Of a DNA stretch of 32,000 nt, positions 5,887 to 32,000 are shown piece after piece (the first letter of the stretch is position 1; every line of letters starts with the position of its first letter). The notes beneath the pieces were generated by a model. It searched no databases. It was not told the origin of the DNA and worked only from the letters and a program-made list of their open reading frames with translations. This DNA is from Pseudoalteromonas tetraodonis. Its GTDB lineage: Bacteria > Pseudomonadota > Gammaproteobacteria > Enterobacterales > Alteromonadaceae. Where the stretch lies: the NCBI RefSeq assembly GCF_002310835.1, contig NZ_CP011042.1, positions 330,001 through 362,000 of the forward strand. The letters are read 5' to 3'. Made by a program: the position numbers and the translations under genes.

Positions 5887-6709
5887 TTAAATTCCAGTTG
5901 TAATCTAAAAATTTAATTTTCATGTCATTATTTTGCAGCGCTTTTTGTTGAGCGGGTAGCAGTTTTAATGCATCAGCGTATTGTGCTAAAAACGGGTGTA
6001 ATGTGTTTGCTCCTTTAAAGCCTTGTTCAAAATCACCGCCGTACCATTTAAAAATAGACGATACATTTAAAGTATTGCCTGTTGCCATGTTGCGGGTGTT
6101 GTCTGACAAAAAACGAACAGTTTGCTGGTGTAATTGCTCTTCTAGTTTATCGGCCGAGTAGGCTTCTTCACGAAGTGCAGGGCAACCAATACTGGCGCAG
6201 TTTACTGCAAAGTGAATACGCGGGTCGTTGTATTTACCACTACCACGAATTAACTCATGCTCTATATCATCAAGGCTGCGTGTTTTACCTAGCAGCGAAA
6301 TAAACTCTTTGCTCCACGGTGAACTAAAAAAGCTACCTAACTCTTTGATTGATTCAATATTAGGGTACTGCGTTAATATTAGTTCAACGGTAAAGGCATT
6401 ATAGGCATTAATTAAAAACGCCAACTGTTTGTGTTTACCCCACGTGTTAAATTCACCTGGTGTGATGGCTGTTAACGTATTTAAATATGCTTTTAATTGG
6501 GTATGCTCGTGTTTAATTGCAGCGTAATCAACCTCAGTGCTGTGCCCATGATTAATAGCGACAACATGTTTAGTTAATAGCGTGTTCCAACTATCGTGCA
6601 GGTTTTGTGCACTACTTTTAAACGCCGTGACCAGTAGTGCACTTAAAACTAAAAACTTCAATAACGTATACAAAGGCTTAACCTCGGCGCCATGCATGGT
6701 ATTTTTCAA
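5873..6709 (-). CDS. DUF547 domain protein, exported
   Basis: 278-aa ORF with a signal peptide (LKFLVLSALLVTAFKSSAQ) and DUF547-type motifs (FLINAYNAFTV, IHFAVNCASIGCP). The annotated start is TTG at 6709; an ATG at 6697 is an alternative. Either start overlaps the upstream stop at 6678-6680. Confidence 0.7.
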   Translation of the reverse strand: MKNTMHGAEVKPLYTLLKFLVLSALLVTAFKSSAQNLHDSWNTLLTKHVVAINHGHSTEVDYAAIKHEHTQLKAYLNTLTAITPGEFNTWGKHKQLAFLINAYNAFTVELILTQYPNIESIKELGSFFSSPWSKEFISLLGKTRSLDDIEHELIRGSGKYNDPRIHFAVNCASIGCPALREEAYSADKLEEQLHQQTVRFLSDNTRNMATGNTLNVSSIFKWYGGDFEQGFKGANTLHPFLAQYADALKLLPAQQKALQNNDMKIKFLDYNWNLNARR

Positions 6710-8831
6710 GCATGTTTAAAACAGTTTGTGGAGCATGGTTACGTTTCCATTCACCAGCGGCATATTTGTTGCCTTCTGCCCATGTTGGGTAGCTGTGAAT
6801 TGTGCCTAGAATTTTATTAAGGCCAAGGCCGTGTTTCATGGCTAAAACAAATTCAGCAATTAAATCGCCTGCATGCTCAGAAACCACAGTAACTCCGAGT
6901 ATTTTGTCTTTTCCTTTAGGGGTGATCACCTTAATAAAGCCATTATTGGCGCTCTCAGTAATGGCGCGGTCTAACTCTTCAAACTCAAAGCGGGTGATTT
7001 CATAGTCTATGCCTTTATCAATCGCTTCTTGCTCGTTTAGGCCTACGCGCGCGACTTCTGGATCAATGAAGGTGGTCCATGGAATAACACGGTAATCTAC
7101 TTTAAACTTTTTAAAGTGGCCAAATAAGCCATTAACCGCCGCGTACCACCCCTGATGAGCCGCAACGTGAGTAAACTGGTACGGGCCTACAATATCGCCT
7201 GCGGCAAAAATATTAGGGTAGAGTGTTTCTAAGTAGTCGTTAGTTACTATGGTTCGATTAGTTTCTATACCAAGCTCTTCAAGGCCATAGCCTTTGAGGT
7301 GTGCGCTTCGGCCAACGGCACACAGTAGCTCATCATATTCAATATCAATTTCGGTGTCGTTGTGCTTCACCACGAGGTACTTTTTACCCTCGCGTGCTTC
7401 ACAGCGCAGCGCTTGGTGTGAGGTTAAAATATTAACGCCACTATCGGCCAATGATTGGTGTGCAAAAGCTGACACTTCAACATCTTCTTTGATCATAACG
7501 CGCTGAGTCATTTCAACTTGCGTCACACTTGAGCCTAAACGAGCAAAGCTTTGTGCAAGCTCACAACCAATCGGGCCCCCACCTAAAACAACCAGTTTTT
7601 TGGGCGCTTCGTCGAGCTCGGCAAATTTGCTCCATAAAGTATCGCTGGTAACGTAACCGGTTTCTTCAATACCTGGCAGTGGCGGTATAAACGGGCGTGC
7701 ACCGGTGGCAATAACAAGTGTGCGAGCGGTAAGAGTTTGCGTGCTGCCATCGTTAAGTTTAATTTCCACTGTCCACGGGTCAATCAATTTTCCATAGCCT
7801 TTTAAAACCTCCACACCTAAATTTGTGTAGCGCTCTATGCTGTCGTGCGGGGCTATATCAGCAATGACTTGATGTACACGTGCCATTACTTTTTTAAAGG
7901 AAAACTGCGGTGTAGTGTTTTCAAGGCCATAGTTTTCGCCATGGCGCATTTGCTGTGCTATTTTTGCACTTTTAATAATCGCTTTACTAGGCACACAGCC
8001 AGTGTTTAAGCAGTCACCACCCATTTCGCCGGCTTCAATTAAGGTGACTTTGGCTTTTACTGCGGCGGCAATATAGCTGGTAACTAAGCCGCCTGCACCC
8101 GCGCCAATAACAATCATGTTACGGTCGAATTTTTTGGGCTTAGTGTAGTTTTTATAAACCCGTTGTTTTTTAAATACATTTAAAATCGCTTTCGCAATCA
8201 GTGGGAATACACCTAATAGAGCAAATGACAGAATTAAATCTAGTGACAAAATGCCCGATAAACGCTCAATTTGTGCAAGTTGAGTACCGGCATTCACAAA
8301 TACAAAGGTGCCTGCCAACATACCAATTTGGCTCACCCAATAAAAAGTCCACGACTTAATAGCGGTTAAGCCCATTAATAGGTTAATTAAAAAGAACGGA
8401 AATACCGGTACTAAACGCAAAGTAAAAAGGTAAAAAGCGCCTTCTTTATCTACGCCTTTATCTATAGCAGCTAAACGCTCAGGAAACCGTTTTTTAATGG
8501 TGTCGCGTAATAAATAGCGTGACACTAAAAAGGCAAGGGTAGCACCAATCGTTGAGGCAAACGACGCCACCAGTAAGCCTTCTACTAAGCCAAATAATGC
8601 GCCTGCGGCCAATGTTAAAATAGCTGCGCCGGGTAAAGAGAGAGCCGTTACTACCACATAGAGTAAAAAGAACCCGCCAATAACTAACAACGGCGATTGC
8701 GCTTTGTATTGGTTAAACTGATCCATCGACCCTTTTAAGCCATCGAGTGTAAGTAACTGGTGCAAATTAAAATGAAAGAACATGCCAATACCGGCTGCTG
8801 CAATCAATAATAACAATAGTTTTTTAATCAT
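6678..8831 (-). CDS. Fusion protein: N-terminal TVP38/TMEM64 (DedA-superfamily) membrane domain plus C-terminal class I pyridine nucleotide-disulfide oxidoreductase (mercuric reductase / dihydrolipoamide dehydrogenase-like)
   Basis: Residues 1 to about 225 are polytopic, with the TVP38-type segment LRLVPVFPFFLINLLMGLT. From about residue 238 onward: FAD GxGxxG (VIGAGAGG), redox-active disulfide GGDCLNTGCVPSK, NAD(P) site VVLGGGPIGCE, C-terminal HSYPTWAEG. Confidence 0.85.
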   Translation of the reverse strand: MIKKLLLLLIAAAGIGMFFHFNLHQLLTLDGLKGSMDQFNQYKAQSPLLVIGGFFLLYVVVTALSLPGAAILTLAAGALFGLVEGLLVASFASTIGATLAFLVSRYLLRDTIKKRFPERLAAIDKGVDKEGAFYLFTLRLVPVFPFFLINLLMGLTAIKSWTFYWVSQIGMLAGTFVFVNAGTQLAQIERLSGILSLDLILSFALLGVFPLIAKAILNVFKKQRVYKNYTKPKKFDRNMIVIGAGAGGLVTSYIAAAVKAKVTLIEAGEMGGDCLNTGCVPSKAIIKSAKIAQQMRHGENYGLENTTPQFSFKKVMARVHQVIADIAPHDSIERYTNLGVEVLKGYGKLIDPWTVEIKLNDGSTQTLTARTLVIATGARPFIPPLPGIEETGYVTSDTLWSKFAELDEAPKKLVVLGGGPIGCELAQSFARLGSSVTQVEMTQRVMIKEDVEVSAFAHQSLADSGVNILTSHQALRCEAREGKKYLVVKHNDTEIDIEYDELLCAVGRSAHLKGYGLEELGIETNRTIVTNDYLETLYPNIFAAGDIVGPYQFTHVAAHQGWYAAVNGLFGHFKKFKVDYRVIPWTTFIDPEVARVGLNEQEAIDKGIDYEITRFEFEELDRAITESANNGFIKVITPKGKDKILGVTVVSEHAGDLIAEFVLAMKHGLGLNKILGTIHSYPTWAEGNKYAAGEWKRNHAPQTVLNMLEKYHAWRRG

Positions 8832-23956: not shown

Positions 23957-24517
23957 TTATTTATCTAGCGCTTTAAGCTCATCAGTTGTTGTTTTTAATT
24001 TGAATTCACGATAAAGCATATCTTCATCATTAGGGCTTAAATTCTTTCCTGACGTTTCGATTAATTTATCAAATAAAGGCTTAGTATTTTCCATAGTTAC
24101 AAGCGCACATAACTGTTTCTTTCCATCTAAGCGAGCAAAACCAATTTCTTTAGCAATAGCCCCTACTAAGCTTTGCTCAGCTACCTGTTTACTTATTTGC
24201 GTAAATGATGAATTAGTCGTCGTTGAGTCTTGCTGTTGGGTTTGTTTGTTTATTAGTGTATCCATTACTTGCGCTTTAGCACTAATTTGAGTTGCTAGAT
24301 CGGCACGTGCATTGGCAATAGCTTGTGCTCTACTTGCAGCCATATTTCCCGTCCATACTACACAGCTAGATGAAGCCAAACCGCCCTCGGGTGCAGTAGG
24401 TTGTAAAACCCAGCTTGGAACAGAATCGTTTTCAGCAAGAGGTTGAGACTTTTGTGGTGTTGTACCACATGCTGTAATAACTCCAGCAACTGCCAATATT
24501 AAAAGTTTATTTCGCAT
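23957..24517 (-). CDS. Lipoprotein, LPP20/FlgP-like (envelope operon gene 5)
   Basis: 186 aa with lipobox LAVAGVITAC-G. The segment PSWVLQP...GGLASSSCVV...ASRAQAIANARADLATQISAKAQV fits what I recall of the LPP20/FlgP family pattern (P-x-W, Gly, then an Ala/Arg-rich helix). The start overlaps the upstream gene by 11 nt. Confidence 0.6.
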   Translation of the reverse strand: MRNKLLILAVAGVITACGTTPQKSQPLAENDSVPSWVLQPTAPEGGLASSSCVVWTGNMAASRAQAIANARADLATQISAKAQVMDTLINKQTQQQDSTTTNSSFTQISKQVAEQSLVGAIAKEIGFARLDGKKQLCALVTMENTKPLFDKLIETSGKNLSPNDEDMLYREFKLKTTTDELKALDK

Positions 24518-25805
24518 GATTTACTTCCTTATTGTTAAGGTTCCATTGTTCTAAGTTTTTTTGATATTGAATATCTAATTTACTTACCTTTTGTAAGTAC
24601 TTTTTTGTTTCGTCGTACGGTAAATTATTTATAAGTTGTGCGTATACACCTTCGCTATCTAATTGGTTTATTAAGGCTACCGCTTTATTTATATTCGTAC
24701 TTCTATTTAAGTTAAATGCTTTAGCTACGTTACCAGCGCCAGTATTATAAGCTGCAATGGCACAATATCTTCGGCTTATGGGATTATTAATTTTGCGCAA
24801 ATATCGAGTCGTTAAAATGTCTAAGTACCCAGCACCGTAAGTTATATTAGTTTTTGGGTCGAATAATTCTTTAGCTGTAGGAGCTATATCCTTTTTAAAT
24901 TGTTTGCGAGCAACATCTAAGCCTGCTGAGTTTGGCACTATTTGCATTAATCCAAATGCTGGAATATGCGATTTTGCATTAGGATCAAATGACGACTCAG
25001 CATGTGAAATAGCTAATAGTAAAGATAATTGGTCTTTAGAAAACTGGCTATAATAAGTAACAAAAGGCGCTACTTTTTTTTGTAAATAAGTATCGGGTAG
25101 AGCGAAAGTATGCGACTTAATGCGTTTGTAGGTAAGGTTTTGCTCTTTTGTTTTTTTTAGCGCATTATTTAAATTACTAATACGTTGTTCTTTTTCTTTG
25201 GTAAGCTGCTCTTTTTGGATATCAATTTGTGCTTTAGGTAATTGCTCGTTTTTATCTAAACTACTCAATGATTGCTCGTGTTGAGAAGTAATTTCATTAA
25301 TTAATGCGACTTCGCTTTCATGTTTGTCTGGCTGTGCTTTTATATCAACTTTTGCTGTTTTTACTGCTTTATCGAGTAAGCTAAGGTCTTTAAAAATATC
25401 AGTTAAAACCGGCGATAATTTAACATTATTTAACAATTGATTTGTTGTTAATGCTTCTTCTTGAGAAGTCGCTTTTAGTCCTGTTTCATTTGAGTCTTCA
25501 AGTGTTTGTACAGTCACGGTCGAATTTTGTTCATCAATAATAATACGTGTTTTTTTATCCGCACTATATTCAACACGTTCTAATAATGAGCTTTGTACAG
25601 GTCTTGACCAGTTTTGCAATAATCTATCTCTAAATTTATCGTATTCCTCGAGATATGCTTGTCTGAATGCTTGATATTCCAACTGATGATCGTTTTTAAA
25701 AGTGGTTTGTTTTGCAAGTTGCTGTTTTTTAAATTCTTCGAACGTCGGCGTGGTAGCCCCGCTGTAAGCACTAAATAAAGCAAAAAATAATAAAGTGTGA
25801 CGCAT
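24507..25805 (-). CDS. MltC-like lytic murein transglycosylase (DUF3393-like N domain + SLT domain), secreted and not lipidated (envelope operon gene 4)
   Basis: 432 aa with a signal peptide (FALFSAYSGA). The SLT motifs align closely with E. coli MltC as I recall it: LLLAISHAESSFDPNAKS..AFGLMQIVPNSAGLDVARK, NNPISRRYCAIAAYNTGAGNV, YDETKKYLQKV. The N-terminal KTRIIIDEQNSTVTVQT resembles the MltC DUF3393 region. Confidence 0.85.
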   Translation of the reverse strand: MRHTLLFFALFSAYSGATTPTFEEFKKQQLAKQTTFKNDHQLEYQAFRQAYLEEYDKFRDRLLQNWSRPVQSSLLERVEYSADKKTRIIIDEQNSTVTVQTLEDSNETGLKATSQEEALTTNQLLNNVKLSPVLTDIFKDLSLLDKAVKTAKVDIKAQPDKHESEVALINEITSQHEQSLSSLDKNEQLPKAQIDIQKEQLTKEKEQRISNLNNALKKTKEQNLTYKRIKSHTFALPDTYLQKKVAPFVTYYSQFSKDQLSLLLAISHAESSFDPNAKSHIPAFGLMQIVPNSAGLDVARKQFKKDIAPTAKELFDPKTNITYGAGYLDILTTRYLRKINNPISRRYCAIAAYNTGAGNVAKAFNLNRSTNINKAVALINQLDSEGVYAQLINNLPYDETKKYLQKVSKLDIQYQKNLEQWNLNNKEVNHAK

Positions 25806-25814
25806 TTTTTATCC

Positions 25815-26606
25815 TTAAAAATAAGCGTTAAATTCATACTTGGTCAGTAATGAATCAGAGATGTATTCACTAGATAGCTCAGATACTGCATAAAATGTAG
25901 CCGCAGTGTTAGCAAGTATCTCGGTTGTTTTAGCTAAGGCTTTTTCGTCATCTTGAGTAAGCATTAACTCATCAAGTTTAAATAAAGCTTTTTGCGTTTC
26001 ATCAAGTAATGGTGCGTAGTTACTAAAGCCAACGCTAAGGTTCAAAAACATACCTTGAGCATTTAACTGTTTTGACTGCATATAATATTTAATATTATGA
26101 GAATCAAAATAAAATTCGTTACTTGATTTTATAACATCGCTTAGACTATTAACTCTGAGCATTTTTTTATTAAAAGGTATTAAGGGTGTAAATTCCGGTA
26201 CCATAGCTTTATCGTATTTTAAGCTATGTACGGCGATGCCGACTATACGAGTATTTTTATTAATAAGTGTGAGTAAATATTTCGTATTTTTGTAATACCT
26301 ATATTCGTAATCAGTATTCAAAGATGATGTTTTAATTACTTGCGGAATACCTATTTTTTTTTCAGCGTAAGGTAAGTAGTTGCCAATATCTAGCGCAGTA
26401 ATCTTTTTTTCTTCGATTTGGTTCGTAAAGTGAGTAATGAATCCGTTGTACCCTTCAATTATGAGTGCTTTACTATCGGCCCAATTTCCAAGACCCATTA
26501 AAGTAACCATAAGTAAAATAAAGTAACCTTTCAATTTAGCTAACAAAGATTTATTTTCTTCAGTGTTAGCCTCAGGCTCTAAGTTATTTCCTACAGACAT
26601 TTTCAT
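25815..26606 (-). CDS. Hypothetical membrane-anchored periplasmic protein (envelope operon gene 3)
   Basis: 263 aa with one N-terminal TM segment (GYFILLMVTLMGLGNWA) after a charged 25-aa head. No motif that I recognise. There is a 9-nt gap to the downstream MltC-like gene. The C terminus ends in an aromatic residue (NAYF). Confidence 0.65.
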   Translation of the reverse strand: MKMSVGNNLEPEANTEENKSLLAKLKGYFILLMVTLMGLGNWADSKALIIEGYNGFITHFTNQIEEKKITALDIGNYLPYAEKKIGIPQVIKTSSLNTDYEYRYYKNTKYLLTLINKNTRIVGIAVHSLKYDKAMVPEFTPLIPFNKKMLRVNSLSDVIKSSNEFYFDSHNIKYYMQSKQLNAQGMFLNLSVGFSNYAPLLDETQKALFKLDELMLTQDDEKALAKTTEILANTAATFYAVSELSSEYISDSLLTKYEFNAYF

Positions 26607-26667
26607 CCTTAAAATATAGTTTATCAGTGTTAAATATAACTGTTTAAAACATGGCTTAATATAATCG

Positions 26668-27504
26668 CTAATAAGAATCGATAGCAGTATTTTTTAACTT
26701 TACAATGCTATTTATTAAATTAGTTGTGCTGTCTTGATTGGCTAAATGAATTAACTCGGTTTTTGAGCGTTTAGAGTAGCTCAAACCTTTTCCTTCAAAA
26801 CGTTGTTGCCAAATAGACTTTTTGCTTTGTGTATCTATTTGAAGTTTTAACTGTGTAATTACAAGTTTACTTTGTGCTTTTATTATCGAGTTTTTAACTA
26901 AATAGGTCACTTCGCAAGCCGAGTTTGTTAATTTATATCCATGCTGTAAAAGTTGCTCAGTGAGTAACTCTGTAAGTTGAGAGCTATTTTCGCCCGTTAC
27001 TTTTAAGCAACTATTTTTTGCGCCTAGCATTGCTTGTTGTTGTTTTATTTTTTCTTGTTGGCCTTCTTCAAGATCGGCTTTACTAATTGAAATAGCTGCA
27101 TATACAGTACAGTTAATAGGGTCTACATAACGATCATATACTTTTGCGCTTTTTAATAGCTGATTGGTTTGAGACTCAATCACCGATTTGTAATCAGAAT
27201 GGCTTACTGTGCTTGATGAGGTGTTTTTAATTATTTCTTTCACTGAAATATCAGTACTTAGTAATTTTGCGAGCTCTTCACGCGCATTTTTAGCTGACCG
27301 ACGTTCATCAATTGTTTTTAAACCAGAGCATTGTGAAGAGCCTGAGCTAGCTAATTTTTCATCATCAACAATATCTATTCCTACCCACTTAGGCTGGGCA
27401 TTCTTTGCATAGTATGAGCTGCAACTACAATGTGATGCTGCATTAGTAAGGAAAGGACTTAGCGCTATTGCCGCTAATAGTAGTGAGGATGTTCTAGTAG
27501 TCAT
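26668..27504 (-). CDS. Secreted protein with an LPP20-like N-terminal region (envelope operon gene 2)
   Basis: The track gives 26668-27534 with a GTG start. I prefer the ATG at 27504, which gives MTTRTSSLLLAAIALSPFLTNAAS (signal peptide). The segment PKWVGIDIV...GSSQCSG...RRSAKNAREELAKLLSTDISV repeats the pattern seen in the ORF at 23957-24517. Confidence 0.6.
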   Translation of the reverse strand: MTTRTSSLLLAAIALSPFLTNAASHCSCSSYYAKNAQPKWVGIDIVDDEKLASSGSSQCSGLKTIDERRSAKNAREELAKLLSTDISVKEIIKNTSSSTVSHSDYKSVIESQTNQLLKSAKVYDRYVDPINCTVYAAISISKADLEEGQQEKIKQQQAMLGAKNSCLKVTGENSSQLTELLTEQLLQHGYKLTNSACEVTYLVKNSIIKAQSKLVITQLKLQIDTQSKKSIWQQRFEGKGLSYSKRSKTELIHLANQDSTTNLINSIVKLKNTAIDSY

Positions 27505-27521
27505 AGTTTTACCAACAGCAA

Positions 27522-27551
27522 TAAGGCCTAACACAAAATTGGTAGGCCTTA
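27522..27551 (-). promoter_or_regulatory. Intercistronic stem-loop between operon genes 1 and 2
   Basis: TAAGGCCTA / TAGGCCTTA, a perfect 9-bp stem with a 12-nt loop. The alternative GTG start (27534-27532) sits in the loop. Confidence 0.35.
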
Positions 27552-27558
27552 ACTTAAA

Positions 27559-28626
27559 TTACAAACGGTTTGAAGTTGTTGCTAGAGTTAGCTTTGCGTT
27601 ATCCGATTCACGCTCGACAAGCCGTGTTTGGCCTTCAATAACAAACTTAAGTTCGTCAACGTCTAATGTTAAGTTGCTCGCTTTTTCATAATATGCTTTT
27701 GCTAATTCTAAATCATTCGCTCTTTCTGCGCACACACCATTGTTGTAGTTTATAGCCAGTGATTCTGAATACTGACTTTGAGCTTTTGCAAAGGTTTTGC
27801 AGGCGTGGTCAGGCATGTCTTTTTCTGCAAATTCAACAGCGAGGTCTAATAACTCTTCTGCTTTATCAGTTAAATCTGAATCATCAGATTCCATCAACTT
27901 TACATTTTTAGTCACTTGGTGTGGTGCAACATCTTGTTTTAATTCTTCTATTACAGCGGCAAGTGCTCTGCCTCGTAATACAGAGTCAGATGGATGAGGG
28001 TCGTCACCTTTACATACTTTACTACTTGATAGGCGTGAATATTGTTTAGTAAAAACAATTTGCCCTGTTTCTACAGATACAGCCTTAGGTTTAAAATTTA
28101 CTTTCGCAATTTTTTCTGAACACTTAATGGTTATTTCTCTAGACTTCTCACACTTGTACCATTTATCACCTTTTTGTATACATTCACTGTCTTTTTCGTA
28201 GTAAGTAGAGGTATCTACATCAGCAGTGTAGTCAGCAGTGATAAGTGTATCTGCGCCTGTAAGTTTACCTAGGCGGGTTCTGTTTTTTGAGTTACTGATA
28301 TCACTTTCATTAAACCGTTGTTGTTCTATAATTTTACTAAGAGAAGCTTTATCAACAAAGGTAAAGTAAGGTTGGCCATTCACACGAATATTTGAAAGGT
28401 TTGTTTCAATTATACCTGTAGCTGCGTTTCTGTTATTTGAAATAACTGCAAGACGCTTCATTTTCTCAGTGCCACTTTCTTTAGCCGCTTTTGTGTATGT
28501 AATAGGTAATTCAGCAGTTGTGAAAGAGTTATTTAAACTAGCAATACCTCCATTAATAGTTTCAGTAACTACACAGCCAGAGAGCATTACACTTGATACT
28601 AAAGCGATTTTTATTCCCTTTATCAT
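27559..28626 (-). CDS. Outer-membrane lipoprotein with a CsgG/LpoB-like fold region, a Cys-rich insert and a C-terminal TPR-like tail (envelope operon gene 1)
   Basis: 355 aa with lipobox VMLSGC-V. The segment KRLAVISNNRNAATG...NGQPYFTFVDKASLSKIIEQQRF...LGKLTGADTLITADY ... AKVNFKPKAVSVETGQIVFTKQ follows the pattern I associate with CsgG/HfaB, LpoB and FlgO-type lipoproteins. C149/C159/C169/C205 form a Cys-rich insert. Residues ~255-325 look TPR-like (ACKTFAKAQSQY..., LELAKAYYEKASNL). AAGGA SD. Confidence 0.6.
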   Translation of the reverse strand: MIKGIKIALVSSVMLSGCVVTETINGGIASLNNSFTTAELPITYTKAAKESGTEKMKRLAVISNNRNAATGIIETNLSNIRVNGQPYFTFVDKASLSKIIEQQRFNESDISNSKNRTRLGKLTGADTLITADYTADVDTSTYYEKDSECIQKGDKWYKCEKSREITIKCSEKIAKVNFKPKAVSVETGQIVFTKQYSRLSSSKVCKGDDPHPSDSVLRGRALAAVIEELKQDVAPHQVTKNVKLMESDDSDLTDKAEELLDLAVEFAEKDMPDHACKTFAKAQSQYSESLAINYNNGVCAERANDLELAKAYYEKASNLTLDVDELKFVIEGQTRLVERESDNAKLTLATTSNRL

Positions 28627-28663
28627 ACAATTATTCCTTTATTAAGTTAGTGTTCATTTTCAC

Positions 28664-28692
28664 TTTTTAACACTTGTAACTAGATGGGTCAA
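28664..28692 (-). promoter_or_regulatory. Candidate sigma70 promoter of the envelope operon
   Basis: On the minus strand: TTGACC (28692-28687), a 17-nt spacer, then TAAAAA (28669-28664), about 40 nt upstream of the ATG at 28626. The -10 matches only 4/6. Confidence 0.3.
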
Positions 28693-28900
28693 CCTTATAG
28701 CTAAAAACTCTCATTAAAACGGTTCTTTTTTCTTATTTTAAAAAAGGTACAAGGGGGGAATACCTTTACAATTTAAAAAGATGCATGAATTTTATAACTA
28801 TAATCGAATCCATCTTTACCTAATTTCATGTAAGAAAAACGACTAAAGTGGCTGTTATCATTCTTTAACTTATTGGATAAATTTTTAAGTGGGGTGTACT

Positions 28901-29413
28901 TTATTTAATAGCATTTTCTACTGGGCAACCACGCTTTCTACATACACCTTCGTTACATAGTTTGCATATTTTACGGGCTTCTATCTGCTCGCTTGTTAGG
29001 CTGCTAAGCGCTAGTTCTATCAAACTTAAAAAGCTTTGTTTTTGTTCATCATTAAAGCTATTTAGTATTTTAGAGGTGGCTGTTTCTCGGCTGTTTAGTA
29101 CTCTTTTAACCCTTTGACTTCCTTTATCAGTTACGTATAAAACAACAGAGCGAGCATCCTTTACCGATTTACGCCTCTCTACAAGCTCTTCTTTTTCAAG
29201 CGTATTTATTAATCTAACCGCACCAGAGTGCGTTAAGCCTAAAACCTTGCTCAGTACATCTATGGTTTCATTTGGGTGGTTGTAAATAGTGACGAGTGCC
29301 GATTCGTGGCTTAAGCGTCGCCCGCCTAATTCGGCAATCTGCTTTTCAATGTCATTAGAAACAAAGGTGGCAAACGTGCCGATTAAATTTGATATGTATT
29401 TTTCATTTTTCAT
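28901..29413 (-). CDS. MarR-family transcriptional regulator with a C-terminal 4-Cys tail
   Basis: The track ORF is 28901-29500. I place the start at M30 (ATG at 29413-29411, MKNEKYISNLIG...) because the upstream 29 codons cover the operator-like palindrome and promoter region. The winged-helix region LGLTHSGAVRLINTLEKEELVERRKSVKDARSVVLYVTDKG is typical of MarR. The tail is CKLCNEGVCRKRGC. Confidence 0.8.
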   Translation of the reverse strand: MKNEKYISNLIGTFATFVSNDIEKQIAELGGRRLSHESALVTIYNHPNETIDVLSKVLGLTHSGAVRLINTLEKEELVERRKSVKDARSVVLYVTDKGSQRVKRVLNSRETATSKILNSFNDEQKQSFLSLIELALSSLTSEQIEARKICKLCNEGVCRKRGCPVENAIK

Positions 29414-29425
29414 AAATTCAATTGT

Positions 29426-29442
29426 ATGTGATTCGATCACAT
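29426..29442. promoter_or_regulatory. Palindrome ATGTGAT-TCG-ATCACAT, candidate MarR operator
   Basis: 7-bp inverted arms separated by 3 nt, 13 nt upstream of the preferred MarR start, in the divergent region toward the dehalogenase pseudogene. Confidence 0.4.
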
Positions 29443-29504
29443 AAATATAGTGACAAGTTAAGTACGCTCGTTTATTGTGTGATTCAGTCATGTATATCAA
29501 TTAA

Positions 29505-30370
29505 ATAAAAAATGATTCAGAAACATTACGTTATACAAAAAAGTTTAAAACTATATTAGATAAAAAAATGGCCTAAATAGATGAAGGCGAAGGCGATCCT
29601 ATTGTGTTTTTACATGGTAATCCTACATCTAGCTACCTTTGGCGAAATGTTATGCCATATTTACAAGGAAAAGGGCGTTTAATTGCTATGGATATGATTG
29701 GATTAGGAGATTCGAAAAAGTTAGATAACACCCATGAAAGCAGCAAATACACATTTGCACTTTTAGAAGCGTTGGGCGTGAACAGTAATGTTACTTTAGT
29801 ACTGCACGATTGGGGCTCTGGTGTTGGTTTTAACTGGGCTAATACACATCGTGATGCAGTAAAAGCGATTGCCTTAATGGAAGCAATTGTTACCGATTTT
29901 CCAACATGGGATGACTTTCTTAAGGACTTACATGGCCCAATTAGCACCTTGCGCTCTGCTGAGGGTGAAAAAATGGTGCTTGATGATAACTTTTTTATTG
30001 AAACAATATTACCAGCGACTATTTCGCGTCAATTAACGCAAAAAGAACACGACGAATATCGTAGACCCTTTATAAATCCGGGGAGGATCGCCGTGCAATT
30101 TTAGCAGGGCCTCGCCAACTTCCCATTGCCGGAGAGGCTGCCGATACTGTCGCTTTAGTAAAAAGCTATGCGAGTTATTTAGCCAACTCTCATGATATTC
30201 CAAAGCTATTTATTAATGCAGAACCAGGTGCTTTTTTAGTTGGTTACGCAAGAGACTTTGTGCGCACATGGCCAAACCTAGCTGAGGTAACCGTGAGCGG
30301 TATCCACTATCTTCAAGAAGATTCGCCGAATGAAATAGGCGAGGCTATTTCTAATTGGTTATCAAAATAA
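29505..30370 (+). pseudogene. Haloalkane dehalogenase (HLD-II, LinB/DhaA-like alpha/beta hydrolase) pseudogene
   Basis: The frame-0 translation [41 protein letters not shown]...VLHDWGSGVGF... has an in-frame TAA at 29574-29576 where homologues have Tyr (MAYIDEG). A -1 frameshift in a G-run near 30081-30083 moves the reading frame. The shifted frame continues EDRRAILAGPRQLPIAGEAADTV...PKLFINAEPGAF...VSGIHYLQEDSPNEIG...SK* and ends at 30370. No in-frame ATG at the 5' end; the ATG at 29512 is in another frame. Confidence 0.85.
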
Positions 30371-30488: not shown

Positions 30489-32000
30489 CTATTTCAGTAA
30501 AAATGGTGCTGTTTTACTCGCTTTTACATTTGCCACTTTTTCAGGTTTACCTTGTGCAACTATATGCCCGCCTTCGTCGCCGGCTCCTGGGCCAATATCA
30601 ATAACCCAATCACTGTTGCTGGCTACTTGCATATCGTGCTCGACCATAATAACGGTATTGCCAGCATCAACTAAGCCATTTAACTGCGTCATTAACATGG
30701 CCACATCTTTAGGATGTAGACCAGTGGTTGGTTCATCTAAAACATAAAGCGTATCGCCGCGCTGAGCACGTTGTAGTTCAGTGGCCAGTTTTATACGCTG
30801 GGCTTCGCCACCTGAAAGCTCAGTAGCGGGTTGCCCTAAACGTAAATAGCCAAGGCCTACCTGTAGCAGTGTATTTAGCGCGCGTTCAATAGCGGGCTCA
30901 TCGTCAAAAAATGTATGCGCCGACTCAACCGTTAAATTAAGCACATCGGCAATGGTTTTATCTTTATATGTAATCTCGAGTGTTTTCTGGTTGTAGCGCT
31001 TAGCATTACACACAGGGCAGGGTGAATAGACACTAGGTAAAAATAACAGCTCTATACTAACAAAGCCTACACCTTCGCAGTTTTCGCAGCGGCCTTTTTT
31101 AACATTAAACGAAAAACGACCGGCATCGTACTTACGCGCTTTTGCTTCATTGGTATTAGCAAACAATTTTCGTACATGATCGAATAAGCCTGTGTAAGTT
31201 GCAAGGTTTGAACGAGGTGTGCGGCCAATGGCTTTTTGATCAACCGTGATAAGGCGTTTTATATGCTCAATGCCTTGCGTTATTTGTCCTTCGGTTGTTA
31301 TGTCGAGCTCTTGCTCGAGCAGCTCAGCGTTGTCTGTTGGTATTTGTGGCTGCGATTTTTGCCCAAGTGCATCGTAAACCAGTTCAACAAGCGCTTGGCT
31401 TACTAAGCTCGATTTACCTGAGCCAGATACCCCCGTAACACTTGTAATAACCCCAAGTGGAAATTCTACATCGAGTTTTTGTAAGTTATTACGCTCAATA
31501 TTTTTAAGCGATAGCCATGCTTTTGGTCGGCGTTGTTTGTGTTGTTTGTGTTGTATGTGAGCTAGGTGATTTTCTTCATTTTTAAATAAATACTGGCTAG
31601 TATGTGAGCTGCTAATTTGTTTTAAACCCTCAACAGGGCCGCTGTAAACAATATTACCGCCGTGTGTGCTAGCATTTGGCCCTACATCGACCACCCAATC
31701 GGCATGGCGAATAACGCTTACGTCGTGTTCAACCACAAAAACCGAGTTACCAGCGGCTATTAGTTCATCTAATGCGGCTAATAAGGCTTGCGTATCTGCA
31801 GGGTGTAAACCTGCCGATGGCTCATCTAACACATAAACTACACCAAATAACTTTGAGCGAATTTGCGTTGCAAGCCTTAGGCGTTGTAATTCCCCTAGCG
31901 ATAACGATGGGGTTGTGCGCTCCAGTGATAAATACCCTAAACCAAGCTTAGTTAACGCTTCAACGCGTTTAAGAATATCGCCTGCTATACGCTTTGCCAC
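30489..32000 (-). CDS. UvrA-family ABC ATPase (excinuclease ABC subunit A-like, probably a divergent paralogue), C-terminal 503 aa; the 5' end lies beyond the window
   Basis: NBD-I signature/Walker B (LSLGELQRLRLATQI, YVLDEPSAGLH). NBD-II Walker A (TGVSGSGKSSL), zinc finger CENCEGVG...CPVCNAKRY, signature LSGGEAQRIKLA, Walker B YVLDEPTTGLH. Noticeably diverged from E. coli UvrA as I recall it. Confidence 0.9.
   Translation of the reverse strand: MAKRIAGDILKRVEALTKLGLGYLSLERTTPSLSLGELQRLRLATQIRSKLFGVVYVLDEPSAGLHPADTQALLAALDELIAAGNSVFVVEHDVSVIRHADWVVDVGPNASTHGGNIVYSGPVEGLKQISSSHTSQYLFKNEENHLAHIQHKQHKQRRPKAWLSLKNIERNNLQKLDVEFPLGVITSVTGVSGSGKSSLVSQALVELVYDALGQKSQPQIPTDNAELLEQELDITTEGQITQGIEHIKRLITVDQKAIGRTPRSNLATYTGLFDHVRKLFANTNEAKARKYDAGRFSFNVKKGRCENCEGVGFVSIELLFLPSVYSPCPVCNAKRYNQKTLEITYKDKTIADVLNLTVESAHTFFDDEPAIERALNTLLQVGLGYLRLGQPATELSGGEAQRIKLATELQRAQRGDTLYVLDEPTTGLHPKDVAMLMTQLNGLVDAGNTVIMVEHDMQVASNSDWVIDIGPGAGDEGGHIVAQGKPEKVANVKASKTAPFLLK

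Follow-up and report, generated by a model that had tools for sequence, protein, structure and literature searches.

Lipoproteins with the LPP20 fold and with the CsgG/LpoB fold are known to form the very large rings that flagellar motors have in the periplasm, and machines that cross the cell wall characteristically have a dedicated lytic transglycosylase, such as FlgJ/SltF, EtgA or VirB1. The Vibrio H-ring (FlgO, FlgP and FlgT) and the Campylobacter basal disk (FlgP) contain several small outer-membrane lipoproteins, among which FlgP has the LPP20 fold and FlgO and FlgT have a CsgG/LpoB/TolB-N-like fold. The concentric rings of V. cholerae, which are anchored to the outer membrane, contain 58 copies each of the lipoproteins FlgP and FlgO and 26 of FlgT (bioRxiv 10.64898/2025.12.02.691832). 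The cassette described here, which is made of five co-directional open reading frames (ORFs) named g1 to g5, lies on the minus strand at positions 23957-28626 of a 32,000-nt stretch of the Pseudoalteromonas tetraodonis genome (contig NZ_CP011042.1, positions 330,001 to 362,000), hereafter the window. Like the H-ring, it encodes several small predicted outer-membrane lipoproteins, with the FlgP-type fold predicted in g5 and in the N-terminal half of g2 and the FlgO/FlgT-type fold in g1. Unlike the H-ring, it has no flagellar context, its proteins do not match the FlgO, FlgP and FlgT family models (E<=1), and its distribution is accessory and mobile; it also adds its own transglycosylase (g4), an ETEC_3214-domain protein (g3), and the TPR tail and long, putatively disulfide-containing hairpin of g1.

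The cassette brings together known folds and a dedicated cutter of peptidoglycan in a form that is stand-alone, modular and mobile, and it matches no described system. Taken by its parts, its nearest counterpart would be the lipoproteins of the flagellar H-ring together with a transglycosylase dedicated to a machine, an enzyme which, like g4, is encoded within an operon of envelope-assembly proteins. The favoured interpretation, to which a probability of about 0.4 is assigned, is that of a two-module envelope cassette, in which an outer-membrane-tethered periplasmic scaffold (g1 and g2, with g5 or an equivalent) would be joined to a dedicated peptidoglycan-cutting unit (g3 and g4). All five products carry an export signal, which is a signal peptide, a lipobox or an N-terminal anchor, as a preliminary description of this DNA, made from the letters and the translated ORFs, had also read; g1 and g5 have lipoprotein signals and g3 is anchored in the inner membrane, and the same signals are found across the homologues examined. 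The five ORFs are real genes, because each has homologues in other genera at E values of 1e-47 to 1e-150.

The g1 protein (27559-28626, minus strand, 355 aa) has the lipobox MLSGC, with Cys18, and is therefore predicted to be an outer-membrane lipoprotein. Its match to the Pfam CsgG model (PF03783) covers profile positions 54-154 of 210 and reaches 17.9 bits, below the gathering score of 20.8, and its match to LpoB (PF13036) reaches 14.8 bits, with a gathering score of 22.3. Pfam TPR models are matched as well, and the TPR tail weakly matches YbgF/CpoB. Across the g1 family, at E<=0.01, CsgG is matched by all 12 members (best 2.8e-11) and LpoB by seven of the 12 (best 3.9e-6). The AlphaFold2 (AF2) model, which has a predicted local distance difference test (pLDDT) score of 82.9, contains an alpha/beta domain, a very long beta-hairpin (strands 127-152 and 159-184), a helical TPR tail with two motifs at about 253-318, and a C-terminal helix. 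Searched against the PDB with Foldseek, this model gives CsgG as the top match (4uv2, E=1.2e-5; 4uv2 and 4uv3 together E=1e-5 to 1e-4, probability 1.0, TMt about 0.35), and further matches are the Vibrio LPHT ring chain 8z5n (E=5.7e-5), LpoB (4q6l, E=1.8e-3, TMt 0.55), GNA1162 (4hrv, TMt 0.59), HpaA, FlgT (3w1e) and LptE. The g1 family profile searched against PDB sequences finds TPR proteins only and not CsgG, so that the CsgG/LpoB kinship of g1 is visible only at the level of Pfam profiles and of fold. At that level, and as judged from the model, g1 belongs to the broad CsgG/LpoB/FlgT/GNA1162/TolB-N-like lipoprotein fold, in agreement with the preliminary description, which had seen a CsgG/LpoB-like region and a TPR-like tail in it.

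The projecting part of the g1 hairpin (residues 136-174) is rich in S, T, Y, E, K and R and is polar or charged on both faces across the family, in which Cys149, Cys159 and Cys169 are also conserved, and the modelled hairpin does not look like a lipid-facing barrel element. CsgG (4uv2/4uv3) is, like g1, N-terminally lipidated and has the same alpha/beta periplasmic fold with a beta-hairpin leaving the core sheet. While CsgG has two amphipathic membrane hairpins, the hairpin of g1 appears in the model as single, polar and cysteine-bridged; g1 has in addition a TPR domain, and the cassette lacks the partners CsgE, CsgF, CsgA and CsgB. The Neisseria protein GNA1162 (DUF799) is likewise one of the best structural matches of g1. 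The GNA1162/CsgG-like/DUF4810 clusters of Neisseria are uncharacterised multi-lipoprotein operons that have a CsgG-fold protein and are not known to have a transglycosylase or an ETEC_3214 protein, and no matches to DUF799 or DUF4810 are found among the cassette proteins. The most distant g1 relative of the word search (L010, positions 1418-2479, 33% identity) stands alone, with only a 35-aa ORF and a convergent PilZ gene after it, and has a longer insertion at the tip of the beta-hairpin.

The g2 gene, also on the minus strand, encodes a Cys-rich protein and extends over 26668-27504 from an ATG start (278 aa) or over 26668-27534 from a GTG start (288 aa). The ATG at 27504 has AAAACT ahead of it and yields a normal signal peptide, and it is probably the likelier start. 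The Sec signal of g2 ends in LTNAAS, and a conserved CSC motif comes next; in many relatives there is a true lipobox ahead of CSC, unlike in the Sec-type protein of the window. Cys26, Cys28, Cys59 and Cys132 are invariant across 43 relatives (residues 26-59 correspond to window positions 27340-27430). The family is small: an exhaustive HMMER search of 1.84 billion clusters revealed 52 representatives, a word-index search having returned g2 alone. No Pfam family is matched directly by g2, TraT appearing only at a non-significant E=0.07. Among the 43 relatives, seven match LPP20 (best 1.6e-5) and two match LptE. The N-terminal half, which has a PxWV motif, is scored by hhalign at 81% with the LPP20-positive protein x2 of a variant cassette described below and at 54% with g5, and the g2 profile searched against PDB sequences ranks Lpp20 (5ok8) top, weakly, at E=0.023; the C-terminal half is an alpha/beta region. 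The LPP20-like nature proposed for g2 in the preliminary description is thus supported indirectly, through its relatives and for its N-terminal half, and not by a direct LPP20 match. In every context examined, a g1-like gene stands ahead of g2.

The third candidate subunit, g5 (23957-24517, minus strand, 186 aa), has the lipobox ITAC, with Cys17, and scores 28.2 bits with the Pfam LPP20 model (PF02169), over the gathering score of 25.9. LPP20 is matched by 10 of the 14 members of its family, and the family profile aligns over almost the full length of Helicobacter pylori Lpp20 (5ok8, E=9e-6). It is the most conserved of the five proteins, with 52-71% identity to the cassette orthologues in other Pseudoalteromonas and in Shewanella, and its alignment also contains more distant LPP20-type lipoproteins at 21-31% identity. 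By these profile and motif matches g5 is a bona fide LPP20-family lipoprotein, as had been proposed, and its predicted location is the outer membrane. In the Pseudoalteromonas lineage with 63% identity, a 60-aa ORF that lies just upstream of g1 on the opposite strand (L008 and L009 9730-9912, minus strand; L031 112-294, minus strand) matches the g5 profile, with E=5e-13 in L031, and resembles a relic of a g5 copy that was duplicated or rearranged.

The enzyme of the cassette, g4 (24507-25805, minus strand, 432 aa), has an SLT domain (PF01464, E=9.5e-25) in which the motifs AESSF, GLMQI and AYNTG are present. Its best matches among PDB sequences are both MltC, 9vi7 (4e-33), with which the catalytic region was aligned, and 4c5f (6.5e-30), which bears out the earlier reading of g4 as an MltC-like transglycosylase. 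In comparison with E. coli MltC (4c5f), the catalytic half of g4 aligns with residues ~132-339 and has the same ES, GLMQ and AYNxG motifs, and a short stretch resembles the MltC N-terminal domain. The NCBIfam MltC model (NF008670) is matched with 145.4 bits, against a cut-off of 375, over model positions 154-358, which are the C-terminal 205 residues only, and there is a secondary match to a flagellar assembly lytic transglycosylase model (NF047373; 60 bits, cut-off 234). Differently from E. coli MltC, g4 is not lipidated: it has a Sec signal, and no Cys is found near the cleavage site in the window protein or in any homologue. A helical N-terminal motif, F..FK...EY..FR..YL.EYD.FR, is present in all homologues, is specific to the cassette and is lacking in E. 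coli MltC, and g4 is always paired with an ETEC_3214-domain gene. From its intact catalytic motifs, g4 is predicted to be a periplasmic, non-lipidated, family-1 MltC-like lytic transglycosylase. The assignment of g4 as an MltC equivalog fails, with a score far under the cut-off and without the lipid anchor.

The partner of this enzyme, g3 (25815-26606, minus strand, 263 aa), had been described as an orphan membrane-anchored protein. The NCBIfam model NF043066 (ETEC_3214 domain) makes it instead a member of a family, with E=4.5e-30 and 104.4 bits (cut-off 35) over 174 of the 175 model positions. About 25 cytoplasmic residues are followed by a single transmembrane helix (LMGLGNW), with the N-terminus inside, so that g3 is predicted to be a bitopic inner-membrane protein with a periplasmic ETEC_3214 domain. 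Its AF2 model (pLDDT 77.7) consists of the transmembrane helix, a long helix, two units of one helix plus four strands, and C-terminal helices. Foldseek finds weak similarities (template modelling (TM) scores of 0.2-0.3) to the non-SCP part of the SCP-containing extracellular proteins 4h0a and 4ifa and to BLIP-like proteins (3d4e with probability 0.80, BLIP-I with probability 0.38), and this modelled BLIP-like resemblance is taken as a lead only; a fold search of BFVD gave one marginal match, a 'zinc-ribbon' protein with a TM-score of 0.31, which was judged uninformative. The last 11 residues, LLT[KR]YEFNAYF (window 25815-25850), are nearly invariant from Pseudoalteromonas to Marinobacter and Ferrimonas (loci L025 and L027), in which they are kept despite an overall identity of 35%, while the g3 of one variant (L034) has a different C-terminus, EYQMYNNS. 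This C-terminal segment looks like a docking peptide.

The founder of the g3 family, ETEC_3214, is a CfaD-activated gene of E. coli H10407 that encodes a protein with a predicted N-terminal transmembrane helix (PMC5554520). It has the same domain model and topology as g3, and an exact match to a published 30-nt primer located it in 231 of the 5,426 complete genomes of E. coli. The copy of E. coli Nissle 1917 (L028, positions 6385-7122) lies between a TonB-receptor/ABC cluster and an integrase fragment, with dynamin-like and patatin-like genes adjoining. While g3 has transglycosylase and lipoprotein partners, the Nissle gene is solitary and has none, and because it is solitary and only ~19% identical to g3, the founder tells little about the cassette.

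The composition of the cassette was followed in an architecture census of ~30 informative loci, made by profile searches of the loci and from gene tables. Relatives are rare: a word-indexed search of 5.8 billion proteins gave 11 clusters for g1 and 20 for g3, and a scan for g3 motifs gave nine loci among 185,579 species representatives. The order g1-g2-g3-g4-g5 is found in three Pseudoalteromonas lineages (63-89% identity), in at least four species of Shewanella, namely S. yunxiaonensis, S. baltica, S. mangrovi and Shewanella sp. SR44-3, and in two metagenome contigs (L032 and L033). All five genes are also found together in two permutations, g1-g2-g5...g3-g4 in L034 and g5-g3-g4...g1-g2 in P. 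xiamenensis, whose g3 is 30% identical. A second type of cassette (type B), x1-x2-x3-x4-x5-x6-g3-g4-g5, is present in Shewanella sp. 10N.286.48.A6 and S. gelidimarina and is rearranged in S. corallii; Marinobacter nauticus has g3-x2-x1-x3-x4-lipoprotein-g4, and Ferrimonas balearica has the minimal form g3-lipoprotein-g4. The g3 gene always stands upstream of g4, often at 0-10 nt from it. Conversely, g1-g2 occurs alone in L029 and L057 and with an LPP20-type lipoprotein gene in L058, all in housekeeping neighbourhoods, and a g1-like gene occurs alone on many metagenome contigs.

The type-B proteins (loci L015/L026 1811-7946, L021, L022 and L027), whose genes are co-operonic, are x1, a lipoprotein of 233 aa; x2, of 300 aa; x3, a lipoprotein of 375 aa; x4, of 454 aa; x5, of 430 aa; and x6, of 241 aa. 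All six have a signal peptide or a lipobox, and x2 is LPP20-positive. No Pfam or NCBIfam family is matched by x1 or by x3 to x6, FlgT_N being found in x4 only at a non-significant E=0.22, and hhalign comparisons of x1 and x3 to x6 with g1, g2 and g5 align signal peptides only.

Since g1-g2 occurs without g3-g4, and g3-g4 joins x1 to x6 in place of g1-g2, the cassette is a composite of a g3-g4 core, with an LPP20 lipoprotein, and a replaceable g1-g2 module. This changes the earlier notion of a self-contained module, while the recurrence of the set in Pseudoalteromonas, Shewanella and metagenomes, even permuted, shows that it is not peculiar to one genome. A chance adjacency of unrelated genes is rejected, as the genes stay together at 30-45% identity and in two different permuted orders, and the same persistence, read from the sequences, is strong evidence for a shared function. 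The view of the preliminary description that no named system corresponds to these genes also holds, as profile searches place them in no characterised system: Pfam, NCBIfam, PADLOC and PHROGs give domain-level matches at most, and none of these libraries describes the gene set. The literature yielded nothing relevant on LPP20/CsgG/transglycosylase operons or on these genes in Pseudoalteromonas or Shewanella.

The cassette, which recurs in several marine bacteria, is accessory and rare, and its composition and surroundings indicate that it is horizontally transferred, because of its low GC content and GC content at third codon positions (GC3), its insertion sequence (IS) and Tn7-like neighbours, and its patchy distribution. 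Its GC content is 0.346, against 0.418 in the rest of the window, with GC3 of 0.23-0.28 against 0.35-0.41, and in S. yunxiaonensis the GC contents are 0.365 and 0.481, respectively. An IS256-family transposase gene (PF00872; 22715-23917, plus strand) is convergent with g5, with stop codons 39 bp apart. The element is absent beside the cassette of the sister genome L002 and present as a truncated copy in L003, which, in these comparisons, makes it a strain-specific and recent insertion, located between g5 and the LysE gene. In other genomes, IS630, IS4 or Tn7-like genes adjoin the cassette. In S. baltica (L012, L013 and L014) it is flanked on both sides by an SGL (gluconolactonase-like) gene, in two fragments or two copies. 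Genes resembling tniQ-tniB-tnsB are ~3.5 kb away, with the cassette on their cargo side, and some strains have an IS4 element; the cassette may be cargo of a Tn7-like transposon. In S. yunxiaonensis it is near prophage tail genes. No match to g3 was found in 50,697 phage genomes, and no copy of the cassette was found on true plasmids, the only matches of this kind being on Pseudoalteromonas chromids.

In the mechanism proposed for the two-module cassette, g1, g2 and g5 (or its equivalent) would be subunits tethered to the outer membrane, which would oligomerise on its inner face into a scaffold that occupies or spans an opening in the peptidoglycan. The opening would be cut by g4, which g3 would tether, position or control from the inner-membrane side, so that peptidoglycan would be opened locally only; contact between the two may be made through the cassette-specific N-terminal helices of g4 or through the invariant C-terminal peptide of g3. 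The outcome would be a stand-alone envelope structure without an ATPase, secretin or filament genes of its own. The oligomerisation of g1, g2 and g5, the interaction of g3 with g4 and the physiological role are inferred, while the gene structure, export signals, family and fold assignments, linkage, modularity and patchy mobile distribution come directly from the analysis. The flagellar rings of Vibrio are taken as precedent because g1, g5 and, by prediction, the N-terminal half of g2 carry the folds of FlgT/FlgO and FlgP. A more specific and doubtful form of this proposal is a lipoprotein ring or plate under the outer membrane, independent of flagellum, pilus or secretion, which would use H-ring/basal-disk folds, have its own transglycosylase and be tied to the inner membrane by the ETEC_3214 protein. 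If such a ring exists, g1-g2 and x1 to x6 would be alternative scaffolds docking on one peptidoglycan-opening core, and the ETEC_3214 family, to which the CfaD-activated gene of enterotoxigenic E. coli belongs, would for the first time be placed in a functional context.

Several points weigh against the two-module scaffold. Enzyme regulation, as opposed to a structural role, is also known for LpoB-like and TPR lipoproteins, and the formation of a ring or scaffold would be an analogy drawn from fold and lipidation only. The TM-scores of the Foldseek matches are low (0.25-0.6), partly because g1 has several domains. As the g1-g2 pair exists without a dedicated transglycosylase, its product would not strictly need one. 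Type-B cassettes have no protein that is recognisably CsgG-like by sequence, so that the 'scaffold' partners of g3-g4 would not be homologous across variants, unless x3 to x5 share the fold. Finally, co-transcription of g1 to g5 is proposed from gene spacing, and a hairpin between g1 and g2 could uncouple g1 from the other genes.

The alternative that survives best, and that is nevertheless considered unlikely, is a control module for peptidoglycan remodelling that builds no large structure, in which g1, g2 and g5 would be outer-membrane adaptors or regulators that act, together with g3, on g4 or on housekeeping enzymes. The models for such a module are LpoA and LpoB, which act with penicillin-binding proteins (PBP1A and PBP1B), CpoB, and NlpI, which acts with endopeptidases. 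These are outer-membrane or periplasmic regulators of peptidoglycan enzymes, and g1 resembles them in its putatively LpoB-like domain and its TPR repeats, as a predicted outer-membrane lipoprotein encoded beside a peptidoglycan enzyme. LpoB itself has a long disordered linker and activates PBP1B by binding to its UB2H domain. The LpoB matches in seven of 12 g1 relatives and in Foldseek (4q6l), the weak YbgF/CpoB match of the g1 tail, the weakly BLIP-inhibitor-like model of g3, the close linkage of g3 and g4 (often 0-10 nt) and the g1-g2 pairs found in housekeeping contexts without a lytic transglycosylase are all consistent with it. However, the partner enzyme in the cassette is a lytic transglycosylase and not a PBP or an endopeptidase, and there are several further components: five or nine exported proteins are many for the regulation of one enzyme. 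So far, the LPP20 fold has been described in ring subunits and antigens and is not known from enzyme regulators, the BLIP-like similarity of g3 has a TM-score of only 0.2-0.3, and the accessory, mobile nature of the cassette is a better fit to an added structure or function than to growth of the core wall.

A second alternative, considered quite improbable, is a mobile system of envelope protection or exclusion, directed at phage adsorption or DNA injection, at conjugation by surface exclusion, or at lytic and other envelope-damaging agents. The patchy distribution and low GC content, the IS and Tn7-like neighbours with the S. baltica cassette on the cargo side of tniQ-tniB-tnsB, the prophage tail genes close by in S. 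yunxiaonensis and the faint TraT match of g2 (E=0.07) would fit such a role, as would the distant relative ETEC_3214, which is activated by a virulence regulator and has an integrase fragment next to it on an island of E. coli. However, no phage or true-plasmid copies were found, with chromid matches only, g1-g2 pairs stand in housekeeping neighbourhoods, and the TraT match is non-significant. PADLOC-DB 2.0 has no match at E<=1 for any of g1 to g5, which also leads to the rejection of an anti-phage defence system as such.

Two further readings have only a very slight chance each. In the first, g1 would be the pore of a CsgG-type outer-membrane secretion channel, with g2 and g5 as periplasmic accessories and g4 clearing the peptidoglycan. 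CsgG is the best Foldseek match of g1, and its Pfam model is matched by all members of the g1 family. The match of g1 itself, however, is partial and below the gathering score, the family profile finds no CsgG among PDB sequences, and no csgA/B/E/F-like gene, hfaA or other candidate substrate gene is present at any locus examined. The g1 model has one hairpin and not two, with both faces polar or charged and conserved cysteines, and it makes the channel that had been offered as one option in the preliminary description unlikely. In the second, the cassette would supply, in trans, accessory ring parts to a flagellar, pilus or secretion machine encoded elsewhere; it would then be a FlgO/FlgP/FlgT-like set that has diverged and has its own transglycosylase. 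Both Pseudoalteromonas and Shewanella have polar flagella, the fold of g1 matches FlgT and the LPHT ring, g5 and g2 would have the LPP20 fold of the FlgP family, and g4 has its secondary match to NF047373. Against this, no flagellar, pilus or secretin gene is found beside the cassette in more than 12 independent contexts, the FlgO, FlgP and FlgT models are unmatched by g1 to g5, as mentioned above, and the cassette occurs in few species per genus, while flagella are universal there. A phage lysis or type 10 secretion cassette is rejected because there is no holin or spanin homology, no phage genome has g3, and g4 has its own Sec signal; PHROGs gives a generic transglycosylase for g4, one family of unknown function for g5 and nothing for g1 to g3.

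The linked and mobile parts of the cassette, found here without a machine, suggest either an undescribed envelope structure or a new form of two-membrane transglycosylase control, and its significance is potential. It offers a testable genomic context for the ETEC_3214 family and for the g2 family of ~50 clusters, and the association of g3-g4 with either g1-g2 or x1 to x6 is a natural experiment on which partners contact the peptidoglycan-cutting core. The five-gene system is small, and its hosts include genetically tractable Pseudoalteromonas and Shewanella strains.

Within the locus, the spacings are 24 or 54 nt between g1 and g2, depending on the start of g2, 61 nt between g2 and g3 and 9 nt between g3 and g4, and g4 and g5 overlap by 11 nt. 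These tightly packed ORFs, their spacings and the hairpin between g1 and g2 were reproduced from the sequence as they had been described. The spacer (27505-27558, minus strand) contains a GC-rich 9-bp hairpin, which covers the alternative GTG start of g2 and has the arms UAAGGCCUA...UAGGCCUUA (-18.2 kcal/mol, z = -2.2 by RNA folding). The hairpin has no clear U-tract and could be an RNA-stability or attenuation element. In a simple scan of the operon strand, nothing terminator-like was called within the g1-g5 unit, this hairpin included. The promoter of the cassette is presumed to lie in the AT-rich 274-nt region upstream of g1 (28627-28900, minus strand), in which a simple scan found no match to the sigma-70 consensus.

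A MarR-family regulator gene (Pfam MarR; 28901-29500, minus strand, GC 0.373) lies 274 nt upstream of g1. In P. rhizosphaerae (L004 and L019), a truncated copy moves with the cassette into a different left flank, and the gene is absent at the Shewanella cassette loci and at the Pseudoalteromonas locus L008. It was rejected as a component of the cassette, being confined to one Pseudoalteromonas lineage, in which it is a possible local regulator. The other neighbours in the window are genes of an ABC importer, TonB-dependent receptors, S9 peptidases, LysE, a UvrA-like protein and one glycosyltransferase, besides the MarR gene and the IS256 transposase gene. By sequence, the stretch corresponds to chromosome II of Pseudoalteromonas sp. 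SM9913-like strains (CP001797.1). As the preliminary description had it, the annotation of the neighbouring genes gives no flagellar, curli, pilus, secretin or capsule/polysaccharide-export genes in the window.

The region around the cassette is variable. An alpha/beta-hydrolase ORF (29604-30104, plus strand) encodes 166 aa in the window, 150 aa in L001 and 227 aa in L002, and because of this variation in length it is probably decaying. The gene of the UvrA-like paralogue (30489-32000, minus strand) encodes ~855 aa in L003 and is divided into two ORFs in L001.

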